Assembly: GCA_035489355.1 (NCBI GenBank)
Contig: DATHKK010000173.1
Span: 1-24,755, forward strand
Source of the DNA: Candidatus Limnocylindria bacterium
GTDB lineage: Bacteria > Verrucomicrobiota > Verrucomicrobiia > Limisphaerales > SIBH01
Reading direction: 5' to 3'
Length of the DNA stretch: 24,755 bases
Part shown: piece by piece, positions 19,810 to 24,755 of the stretch
How the letters are laid out: every line of letters starts with the position of its first letter
Numbering within the stretch: position 1 is the stretch's first letter
Notes under the pieces: generated by a model
What the model saw: only the letters and a program-made list of their open reading frames with translations
Databases searched by the model: none
What the model was told of the DNA's origin: nothing
Position numbers and translations under genes: made by a program

Positions 19810-19839
19810 CGTTCAGTCCACTCCCGGTCGCGAGTTGGC

Positions 19840-22054
19840 TCAGCGATCAAGTTTGAACTCAAAACTCCAATTGTGGCCGTCCTGCCCGGTCAAGGCCAGG
19901 CCATCCACCGCCAGCGTGAGACTGTCCCGGCCTCCTTTGAACCAAGGCTCAGTGGCGGTTCGCGCGATGCCGTAGGTGTTGGCGCGCATGTCGAACGCGA
20001 GGCTCAAGGTGCCGGCGTCGGCGAATACTTTTCCAGAGACGTTGCGAAAGAGCGTCGGCGATTGAATCGATTCAAGACGGGTTTCGATGGTGCCCTTGGC
20101 GGAATCCATAGAGAGCACGCGCAGGCGAAGGGAACTGCGGAGCGCCTTCGTTGGATCGACGGCCGTGCCGTCGATCACACCGCCCGGACGGATGGCCGAG
20201 TTGAACGCCTGCCGCCAGGAGGCGGTGGCTCGCAGCCGACGCGCCGCTTCACCTGATGAAAGAGGCTCTAAGCGGAAGGTTTGATTTCGATAGCTGCCGA
20301 TGAGCGCGCCGTTCTCCATCCGTAATGGCAGCGCGCGGAACTGCGGGGCCAATGACTTGGCAGGAATTCCGGGCGGAGTGGCGTCGCGAACTTCCGCGAG
20401 GCGCAGCGGCCAGTTCGCTTCGCGGTGGCGATTGCCGATGAGCGGGCCGGTGAGCTTGAGTTGCCACGCTTCGCGCTCGGGATCTTGCAGCACGACCTCA
20501 ATCGACTTCGTCGCGTCTGCCGCGCGCATCACTCGCAGCAGGATTTGTTGGGTGCTGGCTTCGGATAGTTTTACGGAGCCTGAATAATACGCATCAGGGA
20601 CCATCGCACCGAGCATGGCGAAATAGTCCGGGCTGGCGGCACGCTTGACCCGCTCCGTATCGGCATCGGGAACTCGCGTGAACTGGATCGCGCTGGCGCC
20701 GAGTTGGCCGGAGACCCGGTCTGAGTCGATCACGAGTTCAAGGTTAACCATTTTCGGATCGTCCAGCACCGGCCCGCCATTGCGCGTCATCTGGTCCGAG
20801 CGGGAAACGAGAGAGAGTTCGAAACGCTCGCGGGCGACTTCGAATTTCCATTCTCCCTCAAACAATCGTCCATCACCCCAGCCGCCGTCGTTGTGGATAA
20901 TCGCTTTGAGCGGATGCGTCCCGGAACCGCCGACGGCCTCCGTGACTTCGAGGTAAATGGGTTTCTTTTCATTGGCCGTCCGCCCCGCCATCGTGCCGGT
21001 GAAAATGGCTCCGGGACGGAAGAACGGCACCAGCAATTCTTCCTGTCTCTTGTGCTGGGCCATCACCTCCGCCACGTACGCGCCGCGCGCCTGTTCAAGC
21101 TGCGCGAGAATCTTTGGCTGCGCGTCCACGAGGGAGCGCAGCCGCGCACGGTCGTCATCGCGGCTAACGTCGAACACTTCGCCGGCGAAATTCTCGCGAG
21201 GCCGCTGGTCTGCCGGCCACGACGGCAAGCTGATGGAGCGGACGGACACATCCCAAGTTCCGCTGCTTTTGGACGCCGTAAAATTCGCCATTCCATTGAA
21301 AGTATTCCCTGGCGGCGTGCCGACCTTCACCACTGAAACCTTCGTCACGTCCAAAGGCGGCGACGTCAACCCGGCCAGTTCGAGAAGGCGGCGCGCCTCT
21401 TTGGCACTCGTCAGTTCGGCGATCCGTTTGTTCACCGTCGCATCGATTTTTAGTTCCTCCTGAAGATAGCGCTCCGTGGGCACGCTCACGTACAAAGGCC
21501 GATCCAGTTTTGCGATCAGGGTCGCGTAAACGTCGGCGATGCCCCCATGCTGCGAACTCGTCTGGAAGGAAACGGACGAAAGCGAAAGGCCGCGCTTTCC
21601 GAGTTCGCGCGCCAGGCTCTGCTCGACGGCTGTTTTAGAAATCGAGGGCGGACGACGCTGCCACCAGATCGTCGCAGCGGTGGCGGCGAGCGCCACGATG
21701 ACGGCCGTGACCAGGCTCAACCGACGGAAGCCGCTTGCGCGCGCCAGCTTGTTCCGTGGCCTGTTTCTGCGCCTGGAGCTGGAGAAGGCGCGCGCGCAAG
21801 GCCGCTCCGAGTTCCTGATCGCGGCGACTCACAGCCAGATTCTTCCGCTCTTCGGCCAATTGAGAGAGCGCCCATTCGCAACGCTCGGCGGCAGATTTCT
21901 TCGCCACGGCGTCGGGAAGGTTGATCGGGTTGCTCACCGAATCGCTGATCTGGGCCTTCTCGATCGCCGAACGAAAACGCCGCCGTGTCGCCTCTGAGTT
22001 GTGCCAGGCAGTCAACTGGCTTCGCAGCGGCAAAGGATCGAAATCGTTTTTCAT
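19840..22054 (-). pseudogene. Single-pass membrane protein (about 737 aa if repaired): N-terminal helical/coiled-coil part, TM helix, three tandem beta-rich repeats; one +1 frameshift
   Basis: ORF 21635..22060 (ATG 22054) and ORF 19840..21720 join by removing one base at 21726-21727, giving QAGARKRLRRLSLVTAVIVALAATAATIWWQRR (basic run plus TM helix). The downstream part alone is a 626-codon open frame. The frameshift may be real or a sequence error. Confidence 0.7.
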
Positions 22055-22066
22055 AAACAAATTGGC

Positions 22067-22474
22067 TCAGCCGCCCCCGGCGGAATTGGCCTGGGCAATA
22101 TGGTTTCGGGCATCGCTGGCAAGTTGATCGGCTTGCTGCGCCTGGCTGCTGGCGGCGCTGGCTTCGCTAAAAGCGGATTGCGCGCTGGCACGGGCGTCGG
22201 CGCAATTCTGGCCGGCCTGTGCTGATTCACTCGCGGCGATGCGATGCTGCTCGTCGGCGCGGAGCACATCGGTCGCGGCGGAATTCAGATCGCGGTGCTG
22301 GGCCGCGATGGCGGTCAGGATTGTTCGTTCAGACGCAGCGCGCGGTTGGAGAAATCGTTGTTCGGCGGCGCGCGCGTTGGCGTCGCGCCAGACCAGGCGG
22401 GCATCCGCCACGACTTCCTGCAGCGCGCGGGATTGCCGCTGAAGTGACCAGAGAATGTCGTCGCGATCACTCAT
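22067..22474 (-). CDS. WXG100-like small helical protein (WxD variant) with Ala/Gln-rich C-terminal extension
   Basis: 135 aa, helical composition, ARLVWRDANARAAEQRFLQP. ATGA overlap with the upstream gene and co-oriented with an FtsK-like gene. Confidence 0.7.
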   Translation of the reverse strand: MSDRDDILWSLQRQSRALQEVVADARLVWRDANARAAEQRFLQPRAASERTILTAIAAQHRDLNSAATDVLRADEQHRIAASESAQAGQNCADARASAQSAFSEASAASSQAQQADQLASDARNHIAQANSAGGG

Positions 22475-23313
22475 GGCAGCGGCTCCGCTCGGTTGAGATG
22501 TTGAAGCGTTTCAATGGCTTCCTCGAGTTGCTTGCGTCCGAGATCTTCGTGAATGGCGATTTTCTCCGCCGCGGTGTTCGCAAGGCGCAATTGCGCGTCA
22601 GCCTCGGCGGCGCGGGCGCAGGCAGATTGCGCGGCGGCGGTCATGTCGTCACTGGCGGCTGTCTCGCGATCCACGGCGGCGCGAGCTTGCGTGGCCGACT
22701 GCCGGGAATCCGAGGCGCGGTTTACTGCGCCGTGCGCGCAACTCACCGCAGCGCGCGCGCAACTCTCGCTTTGTGATGCCAGGCTCACCGCTTTTTGGCA
22801 GGCGGCCACGCGTTCCTGCGCGCGTTTCACTTCATTCTGCGCCACGTTGACCTGCTGCTGTGCAATAGCCACAGCCCTCCCCGCCGCCGCCGCCGATGCG
22901 GCCGGGCCGGAACAATCCCGGGCTGGGCCATTGGGATCGTGCGGCGCCGACATGCACGCGCTCAAAGCGTTCGAGGCGCTGTTGTAGCGCTGCTGGCAGG
23001 CCGCCAGATTGTTCATGGCGTTCGCCAGTGCGATCTGCGCGGCCTCCAATCGGTCGCGCGCGGCTTCCAATTCTTTCTTCCAATGAGACAACGCTGAGTG
23101 GGCTTCGAAGGTCGCTGCTTGCGCGTTGCTCAACGACTGATTGCACTGGGCGAGCGCTTGCTGCGCGGTGGCCAGCGCTTGTTGGGAGAGATGCTCGATT
23201 TCCTGGACGTGGCGTTCGTCATCGCGCGCCGTGTCCGCGATCGCAATGGCCAGCTGTCGAGTGCGTTGGGCGCTCTCATCTGAAAGGCGCTGGTCCCGTA
23301 CCGTGTCTTCCAT
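22471..23313 (-). CDS. Ala-rich coiled-coil protein with central Cys-x13-Cys loop (280 aa)
   Basis: From ATG 23313: MEDTVRDQRL... heptad-like A/Q/E/R-rich helices, ALSACMSAPHDPNGPARDCSG, 8 Cys, no signal peptide. The first 74 codons of the ORF-track call 22471..23535 lie in the inverted segment. Confidence 0.78.
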   Translation of the reverse strand: MEDTVRDQRLSDESAQRTRQLAIAIADTARDDERHVQEIEHLSQQALATAQQALAQCNQSLSNAQAATFEAHSALSHWKKELEAARDRLEAAQIALANAMNNLAACQQRYNSASNALSACMSAPHDPNGPARDCSGPAASAAAAGRAVAIAQQQVNVAQNEVKRAQERVAACQKAVSLASQSESCARAAVSCAHGAVNRASDSRQSATQARAAVDRETAASDDMTAAAQSACARAAEADAQLRLANTAAEKIAIHEDLGRKQLEEAIETLQHLNRAEPLP

Positions 23314-23320
23314 GCTCGAC
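23314..23320 (+). repeat. Left 7-bp inverted repeat GCTCGAC
   Basis: Exact reverse complement of GTCGAGC at 23683-23689; sits where coding sense switches strand. Confidence 0.8.
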
Positions 23321-23682
23321 TGGAGAATGCCACCGGTCACGCGGAATGGTATGCGGCGGAACAACCGCGCATCGCGTGGGTCGGTCAGGAATTTAACGTG
23401 CGCGGCTATGCTTCTCTGGTGCTCAAACGCAAACCGTCCGACAACATCGTTTTCGTCGGCAACAATCCCAACGCCCGGCACGGACTGTTGTTGAGCGTGC
23501 TCACCAGCATCGCCCTCAATCTCGACGCGCGGCACACGCAGTTCGCGCTGATTGATCGCACACCCAGAGGCTCACCGTGGGAAAAGGTCGCGCCGACCTG
23601 GAGCGAGCATCTGACTCGCACCGCTGGTGTGATGTGTCGGCTGGCCACCGAGTCCGCGGCAGCGGAGGAATTGTTGCGCGAG
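23321..23682 (+). other. Inverted internal fragment encoding part of a C-terminal FtsK/EccC-like degenerate ATPase domain
   Basis: The + strand frame reads (ARL)ENATGHAEWYAAEQPRIAWVGQEFNVRGYASLVLKRKPSDNIVFVGNNPNARHGLLLSVLTSIALNLDARHTQFALIDRTP...EELLRE with no stop. This is a P-loop-fold-like beta-alpha pattern, opposite in sense to both flanking genes. Confidence 0.75.
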
Positions 23683-24610
23683 GTCGAGCTTCCGCCGCGG
23701 TGTCCCAGTGCAGGAGCAGATAAGTGCCGCCCTCCATGCCGTTGTTGGCGATGCGACGGAGTAATTCTAAGCTGCGAGTGTCGGTGGCGAAGCCGTGGGG
23801 GAAATCAGCAACGACGACAATCCTCAGCTTCTCGCGCCGGCGTTGATTGACCGGTATCTGCTCGAAGGATGTGATCTGGCCACCCAGAGAGTTGCGGCTG
23901 ATGCGCACGAAATTTCGCTCGGCCGCCTCAAGGTCCTGGAACAATTCGGTGTTTTCGATCCGGCCGGGCAGACGATTGGCCCAGCGGAAGGCGTTGCCGC
24001 TGTTGTGCGGATCAACGAAAAGAAACTGCACCTGATTAGGCAGCGCAGCCGCGATGCGCCAGACGAGCGACTGCATCGCGTCGAGGACAGGCTGTCGATG
24101 TTTGGCGTTGCCCGGAAAAACCAGCGTGCGCCTCCGGCCGACGAAGGGAACCATGAACGGAGACGCTGGCCCGCTCGCGCCTTCACCCGCTTGGACACGC
24201 CCGAGGCAAAGCGCGTCGGGCAACGTCACCACTTGCTGTTGTTGCGATGAATTGTAGGCGGCCCATGCCGCTTCGTCCCAACCCGGACGCGAGAGCAACG
24301 GCACGGCGGCGTTGGCAGCGGCGCATGCGCGCTGGGCGGCTTCGCACACCGTGGCCAATTCACCATCAGCCACGCGACTTTCGACGAGCACACGAACCGC
24401 AGTCGAGGCGATGCGTCCTTCGGCTGTCGCTTGGCGAGTCGCGGCATTTTTCACCGCGTCGTCGATGGAGGCCAGCCAGGCGTTAATGCCGCTGGCTTTT
24501 CCGCGCGAACATTGGGCATCGATCTCCGCCTGCGCAGTAGGATCACCGGCACAGGCTCGGACCACCAGCGCCGCAGGTTGGTTTCGATCTGAAGGGGATG
24601 GATTACTCAT
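23516..24610 (-). pseudogene. FtsK/SpoIIIE (EccC/EssC-like) ATPase-family gene, rearranged; first degenerate ATPase domain only in the present orientation
   Basis: LPDALCLG, FMVPF..RTLVF, MQSLVWRIAAALPNQVQFLFVDP..SGNAF, LRIVVVADFPHGF, LRRIANNG..GGTYLLLHWD. This resembles the first pseudo-ATPase domain of WXG100-associated FtsK proteins. No GxxxxGK[ST] motif. The last about 55 codons are antisense read-through of the inverted segment. ATG 24610. Confidence 0.72.
23683..23689 (+). repeat. Right 7-bp inverted repeat GTCGAGC
   Basis: Reads GCT CGA C (A-R-x) on the - strand in the FtsK frame, the same register in which the left copy is read on the + strand. Confidence 0.8.
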
Positions 24611-24755
24611 TTGCAAACCGTCCTGTCGGCGCCGCCCATTCCGTTGAAGTCCATCGACAAGTTCCCGCGCCACGCCGCGGCGAGACGGCGGAAGCAGGGC
24701 TCTCCGAAGAACCGGATGATTGGGATTCCCTGTCGCAAACCGGCGCGGAGAATAC
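24607..24755 (-). CDS. Probable 3' end of an upstream gene, 5'-partial; product unknown
   Basis: One frame (..ILRAGLRQGIPIIRFF...DRTVCK-TGA) ends in an ATGA overlap with ATG 24610. All three frames are open over this stretch, so the frame is uncertain and the FtsK-like ORF could itself extend upstream. Confidence 0.3.
   Translation of the reverse strand, partial: ILRAGLRQGIPIIRFFGEPCFRRLAAAWRGNLSMDFNGMGGADRTVCK

Follow-up and report, generated by a model that had tools for sequence, protein, structure and literature searches.

The question raised by this locus is why the coding sense of an FtsK-like ATPase gene changes to the opposite strand for a few hundred nucleotides and then returns. 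The window, that is, the whole stretch of DNA that was analysed (24,755 nt), is the complete contig C173 of a fragmented MAG (893 contigs; 4.08-Mb assembly; 73% complete), and its host is an uncultured soil Verrucomicrobiota. According to the initial annotation, the reversed piece is bounded exactly by two 7-nt inverted repeats and represents either an invertible ON/OFF switch or a one-off event, namely, a microhomology-mediated inversion or a chimera. Based on comparison with intact orthologous loci, we consider it very probable that the operon in the window is pseudogenised and bears a deletion-inversion-deletion scar, fixed and irreversible, which arose in one step or two.

Comparison with intact orthologous operons

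A scan of GTDB genomes yielded two loci with DNA: L032, from a Limisphaerales MAG (79% amino acid identity to the window; ATPase ORF of 1009 aa), and L033, from a Verrucomicrobiota MAG (64% amino acid identity; ATPase ORF of 1054 aa). The intact orthologous loci extend over L032:6001-12919 and L033:5863-12916, and their counterpart in the window is 19840-24610. Both orthologues display the same ancestral order: the ATPase, a 90-aa gene, a 95-aa WXG100 gene, a 317-aa coiled-coil gene, a 135-aa gene, and a large membrane protein of >650 aa. The orthologue ATPase is encoded by one ORF with three P-loop domains, comprising an N-terminal region with a degenerate D1, a canonical D2, and a degenerate D3. 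Its sole canonical FtsK/SpoIIIE domain, PF01580 (FtsK_SpoIIIE), lies at aa 420-576 (Pfam, E 6e-30), and D2 contains the Walker A motif GAGTGMGKS and the Walker B motif LVLVVDEYQ. Additionally, the two small genes directly follow the ATPase in both orthologues and are tightly coupled. The WXG100 gene at L032 9318-9602 matches PF06013 with 28.9 bits, above the cut-off of 27.3, and its L033 counterpart reaches 25.0 bits. The coiled-coil ORFs (L032 9602-10555 and L033 9590-10543) start 30 codons upstream of the MEDT motif, and the native start of the ancestral coiled-coil gene overlapped the stop of the WXG100 gene.

In these related Verrucomicrobiota and Limisphaerales MAGs, the intact operon is T7SS-like and translationally coupled, and its ATPase has no obvious N-terminal TM segment. 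The 90-aa gene product is helical, the WXG100 protein has YEG in place of WxG, the 317-aa protein is a Cys-rich coiled coil, the 135-aa protein is helical, and the membrane protein of >650 aa is single-pass. Similar to the EccC/EssC ATPases of type VII (WXG100) secretion, the orthologues have three tandem P-loops, one of them canonical, with a WXG100-family gene nearby. In contrast to EccC/EssC, neither an FHA domain nor an N-terminal transmembrane segment was noted in the 1009-aa orthologue, the NCBIfam scores are far under the equivalog cut-offs (110 vs 509 bits), and the operon belongs to a diderm bacterium of the PVC group. The window itself has lost both the catalytic domain and the WXG100 gene. 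The only literature found on T7SS in Verrucomicrobia was one article's secondary mention of reports of WXG100 proteins in Verrucomicrobiae (PMC6471051). The intact operon of the related Verrucomicrobiota is a more interesting matter than the inversion, and the occurrence of a WXG100-type system in such a diderm host (PVC group) may deserve a study of its own.

The features of the window, together with their counterparts in L032, are as follows.

23686-24648, block A: equals L032 6925-5963, reverse orientation (blastn)
23333-23687, block C: equals L032 8150-8504, forward orientation (blastn, 82% identity)
20136-23329, block E: equals L032 12890-9676, reverse orientation (blastn)
23688..24610, minus strand: remnant A of the ATPase gene, N-terminal region and first (degenerate) P-loop domain, aa 1-308 of the 1009-aa orthologue
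23333..23687, plus strand: fragment C of the ATPase gene, start of the third P-loop domain (D3), orthologue aa ~717-835
22471..23329, minus strand: coiled-coil gene, 5'-truncated (317 aa in the orthologues)
19840..22060, minus strand: downstream membrane-protein gene of the same operon (one ORF of >650 aa in both orthologues)
23686-23688: breakpoint 1, end of segment A joined to the inverted 3' end of segment C
23330-23333: breakpoint 2, junction between the inverted 5' end of C and codon ~25 of the coiled-coil gene
23314-23320: left 7-mer GCTCGAC, within coiled-coil-gene DNA over its whole length, 10-13 nt away from the inverted fragment
23683-23689: right 7-mer GTCGAGC, straddling breakpoint 1, made of part C-derived and part A-derived bases

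Read in gene orientation, the window has the arrangement A - inv(C) - E, with the blocks running reverse, forward, and reverse relative to L032. The same arrangement was obtained by blastn with L033 at coarser resolution. As observed in a three-way base comparison at breakpoint 1, identity to A begins at 23686 and identity to C stops at 23687, with GA common to both. At breakpoint 2, identity to C holds from 23333 (possibly 23331), and identity to E holds to 23329 with partial matches to 23334; ~2 nt, CC at 23333-34, are common to C and E, and 23330-23332 are matched to neither block. The breakpoints are resolved to ±3 nt and were inferred from orthologues that are 18-28% diverged in DNA, so the microhomology lengths are uncertain by a few bases. 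The inverted piece, which had been given as 362 bp, measures ~355 bp in the orthologue alignment.

Two segments of the ancestral operon are missing. Segment B (L032 6926-8149, 1224 nt), absent at breakpoint 1, is the canonical ATPase domain D2 with Walker A and B and has PF01580 inside. Segment D (L032 8505-9675, 1171 nt), absent at breakpoint 2, comprises the last ~174 aa of the ATPase (the rest of D3), the 90-aa gene, the 95-aa WXG100 gene, and 24-25 codons at the start of the coiled-coil gene. Comparison with the locus in related genomes thus confirmed the inversion that the initial annotation had read from the window and additionally revealed two flanking deletions of ~1.2 kb. When the 4.08-Mb assembly was searched by tblastn with the orthologue, no match to the missing parts was found elsewhere at comparable identity, and only a 29-31%-identical paralogue on C381 and C328 was recovered. 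Relocation of the missing segments within the assembly was rejected on this basis, the only match being to that distant paralogue. The possibility that an inverted D2 is hidden on the plus strand of the coiled-coil region was likewise rejected, with no tblastn match.

The remaining pieces of the ATPase keep a clear resemblance to the orthologue. Remnant A aligns with aa 1-308 of the L032 protein at 79% identity (tblastn); as it stands, its ORF comprises 364 aa, reading into antisense nonsense and stopping at 23516. The proposal that the plus-strand peptide is FtsK-family coding sequence on the wrong strand was borne out, with 85% identity to aa 713-835 of the 1009-aa orthologue, and both flanks of the piece match the orthologue in the opposite orientation to it. 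The degenerate P-loop in fragment C reads VGNNPNARHG. In a search of 1.84 billion proteins, the relatives of the N-terminal piece were ~940-1100 aa long (mostly 900-1100 aa), and the piece aligns with their N-terminal ~300 aa. Pfam and NCBIfam gave zero matches on the remnant pieces and neighbouring genes, so the FtsK assignment came from homologues. PF01580 with Walker A/B is absent from the window gene, and the neighbouring WXG100 gene is absent from the window, lying in the second deleted segment. As judged from its sequence, the window ATPase gene is a remnant of a member of the FtsK/SpoIIIE (EccC/EssC-like) family and not a functional member.

More distant and closer relatives also bear on the two pieces. 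Among 40 same-genus relatives, no orthologue was found, only ~1300-aa paralogues of ~27% identity; such paralogues occur in same-genus genomes, in 26 of 41 related genomes. The N-terminal piece (23690-24610, minus) and the plus-strand peptide match the same ~1300-aa paralogue ORFs on one strand, ~390 aa apart, with PF01580 FtsK_SpoIIIE between the two matches and weak similarity to EccC/EssC. These paralogues are informative on the co-strandedness of the pieces and not on the breakpoints. In a closer relative, P0003 is 67% identical to the N-terminal piece, and P0004 is 67% identical to the plus-strand peptide. P0004 extends well beyond the window junction, and the two proteins are encoded on the same strand of the same contig, ~1.25 kb apart. 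On that contig (ENA ERZ26871208, 57.5 kb), many genes are split, among them PutA (four pieces) and the ATPase (at least four ORFs); this pattern looks like long-read indel error rather than biology.

Origin of the rearrangement and decay of the locus

The ancestor carried a T7SS-like operon, with an FtsK/EccC-type ATPase and WXG100, colinear with L032 and L033. The rearrangement took out D2 (1224 nt) and left a 355-bp piece from the start of D3 inverted; the 1171 nt that followed were also lost, and with them the remainder of D3, the two small genes, and ~24 codons at the 5' end of the coiled-coil gene. The ATPase is thereby inactivated, and the change is not reversible. Measured against L032, remnant A has a dN/dS of 0.11 and fragment C one of 0.095. 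The dN on the window branch does not exceed that on the L032 branch, and the old frames of both remnants have no stops. Because a dN/dS of ~0.1 and stop-free remnants keep the signature of earlier purifying selection, these values indicate that the rearrangement is recent relative to the split from L032, in a qualitative sense given that dS is near saturation.

Two routes might have led to this structure: double-strand breaks that released a fragment which was then rejoined by end-joining, or replication that switched template twice (MMBIR/FoSTeS). Template switching requires no special genes. As for end-joining, the genome contains a Ku homologue (G000:C175:1285-1827, minus; PF02735, 178 bits), from which NHEJ may be available to the host. 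Relative to the ancestral order, the inverted segment lies between the 1224-nt and 1171-nt deletions, and each junction has ~2 nt of microhomology (GA at 23686-87 and CC at 23333-34, ±3 nt) with no long repeats. Two deletions around an inversion, microhomology of ~2 nt, no repeats, and no recombinase in the window fit end-joining or template switching. The structure resembles the DEL-INV-DEL rearrangements attributed to MMBIR/FoSTeS or end-joining, in which an inverted segment is flanked by deletions, with ~2-nt microhomologies and no long repeats or recombinase. Complex rearrangements of this type with microhomology junctions are known mainly from human and model-organism genomics. In contrast, the present case is a fixed natural scar in an uncultured soil Verrucomicrobiota, with a mechanism inferred from junction anatomy and Ku and a parent seen via diverged orthologues only. 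The event is ordinary pseudogenisation by microhomology-mediated complex rearrangement. Microhomology-mediated mechanisms in bacteria have been reviewed (PMC6443146).

More specifically, the scar might stem from a single event of Ku-dependent end-joining (or MMBIR), which would make it a naturally fixed bacterial DEL-INV-DEL that silenced one of two T7SS-like WXG100 loci and left the ~1300-aa paralogous locus (C328/C381) intact; we put this forward tentatively, as a reading that is somewhat more likely to be wrong than right. The window genome keeps this ~1300-aa FtsK/EccC-like paralogue at C328 1-2139 (minus) and C381 5313-7232 (minus). It is 65-80% identical to its same-genus homologues, its only interruption is at contig ends (D1/D2 boundary), and it may be the functional copy. 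The ~1300-aa paralogue shows weak, sub-threshold NCBIfam similarity to EccCa/EccCb/EssC. A weak WXG100-like ORF adjoins the C328/C381 paralogue (22.9 bits, below the cut-off).

The same scar might also have arisen through two successive events, a sub-variant that concerns the route only. Here, an inversion covering the start of D3 together with either D2 or the downstream DNA would have been followed by one deletion that left 355 bp inverted. Two such events yield the exact A - inv(C) - E order with two junctions; furthermore, once the ATPase was broken, additional loss would have been neutral, and another independent lesion of the operon, a frameshift in the membrane-protein gene, shows ongoing decay. 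However, this route needs two rare independent events whose endpoints by chance leave a clean 355-bp piece. Moreover, the remnants bear no sign of a pseudogene interval between the events, and the intermediate was not found in any relative examined. We therefore regard the two-event route as rather unlikely.

The frameshift itself results from a 1-nt indel near 21726-21728, which leaves the membrane-protein gene as two ORFs (141 aa and 626 aa). The frame changes at orthologue aa 129 (tblastn), and the indel appears as a 1-nt gap in blastn. An independent contig, L026, has the same split of the membrane-protein gene, with gene calls of 139 and 618 aa. This frameshift is a second sign of decay across the whole locus.

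Recurrence of the junctions in other assemblies

Both junctions recur outside the MAG. The ENA megahit contig k141_1340997 (38 kb) encodes an identical 364-aa product and has both junctions. It matches window 19824-24755 with 3 mismatches (SNPs), all in the last gene, and its contig ends differ from those of the window. This contig continues 9.8 kb beyond the window end, so the ATPase gene is not 5'-truncated. Additionally, a Logan contig from run X1 covers both junctions with 0 differences, and a 625-nt contig from run X3, which belongs to another sample and study, covers breakpoint 2 (junction B) with 0 differences. Run X1 is possibly the source sample, with the ENA contig perhaps built from the same reads; X3 alone is clearly independent, and it covers junction B and not junction A. 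The alternative orientation was not seen in 3 assemblies and 2 samples, nor were its joints seen in 4 runs, this public-run evidence consisting of short-read contigs at 3-5x depth, which drop rare variants. In runs X4 and X5, the sub-90% pieces are too short to show orientation. Coexistence of intact and rearranged alleles in the population is less likely than the single-event reading, and a rare intact or re-flipped allele could go undetected at this depth.

These observations decide the standing of an assembly or amplification chimera, that is, a structure with no counterpart in the living genome. The fragmentation of the MAG into 893 contigs and the low depth (3-5x) would permit such an error, as would the fact that the run that holds the locus best may be the MAG's own source. 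However, the identical double junction is found in a separate ENA megahit contig with different ends and 3 SNPs as well as in the Logan assembly of X1, and junction B is found in the other sample and study over 625 nt. Furthermore, a de Bruijn assembler cannot, without junction-bearing reads, invert a 355-bp unique segment across 2-nt overlaps. Because the same junctions turn up in separately assembled contigs and in a second sample, they are not an artefact, and a chimera is highly improbable. Of the one-off alternatives in the initial annotation, the microhomology-level rearrangement holds; in contrast, the chimera fails on the recurrence of the junctions, and the 7-mers are not the microhomology, which amounts to ~2 nt at the true breakpoints.

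The 7-nt repeats and the proposed switch

The sequence elements from which a switch had been proposed are all present in the window. GCTCGAC at 23314-23320 and its reverse complement GTCGAGC at 23683-23689 are both in the sequence, and the plus-strand frame is open across 23320-23682 (121 codons between the 7-mers). An in-silico flip between the 7-mers produces a continuous minus-strand ORF of 444 aa, from ATG 24610 to TGA 23276-23278, and sets GAGGT 5 nt ahead of ATG 23313. A 7-nt inverted repeat near both ends, an open flipped frame, and GAGGT ahead of ATG 23313 speak for phase variation, whether site-specific or repeat-mediated, in which both the C-terminus of the ATPase and translation of the following gene would alternate between states.

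However, base-by-base alignment to L032 places the left breakpoint at 23330-23333 and not at 23313/14, and the inverted DNA is not bounded by the 7-mers. The region 23314-23329, including the left 7-mer, is coiled-coil-gene DNA, whose minus-strand reading G-I-L-Q-S-S-M is conserved in both orthologues; the orthologue has GCTTGAT where the window has the left 7-mer. The right 7-mer mixes C- and A-derived bases and is thus a product of the join. Within ±10 nt of both real breakpoints, there is no 7-nt inverted repeat. For two points 357 nt apart, an inverted repeat of 7 nt with its copies within ±20 nt is found at 11% of window positions and 9% genome-wide. Since 9-11% of random places have a pair this near, the 7-mer pair is no better than chance, and the inverted match between the two 7-mers is a coincidence.

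The flipped product also does not correspond to a functional gene. Without the catalytic domain and most of D3, it misfits the ~1000-aa architecture of the family. The 444-aa re-inverted ORF was rejected as the ancestral gene because the 408-aa middle segment (PF01580) and the C-terminal ~174 aa are missing from it. The four residues LENA with which its "restored" part begins are antisense to the neighbouring coiled-coil gene. In both orthologues, ATG 23313 corresponds to the conserved internal Met31 of the coiled-coil protein and is not the native start, so the Shine-Dalgarno sequence that the flip was said to restore is irrelevant; the real start lies 30 codons upstream.

As the initial annotation had stated, the scanned window ORFs contain no recombinase domain. 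A genome search for invertases of the resolvase family (PF00239) gave no match in the 73%-complete genome. Like the present locus, invertons such as hin, fimS, and Bacteroides promoter flips have a short inverted segment near a short inverted repeat. In contrast, they possess exact, longer inverted repeats, a dedicated recombinase, both orientations in populations, and function in both states, and none of these was seen here, the data on orientation being contigs at 3-5x depth. With the left repeat outside the inverted DNA, a repeat pair expected at ~10% of places, a product and a start codon that misfit, no recombinase in the window and no resolvase-family gene in the 73%-complete genome, and a single orientation in 3 assemblies and 2 samples, an invertible switch is contradicted by the orthologue comparison and can be dismissed as extremely improbable.

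The short inverted repeat and the open flipped frame looked like a phase-variation switch, and the orthologues show a dead gene, which removes a tempting false positive. In GC-rich genomes, 7-nt inverted repeats near any two points are common (~10%); because they are common, a switch should be proposed only after the breakpoints have been located by comparison with orthologues. The 150-aa ORF at 23398-23850 (plus) is a by-product of the rearrangement and of open antisense frames in GC-rich DNA, and not a gene, and the extended coiled-coil ORF (354/336 aa) at 22471-23535 (minus) is likewise a by-product and not a gene. For annotation, these two ORFs and the 364-aa ORF are all artefacts that stem from pseudogenisation of the locus.
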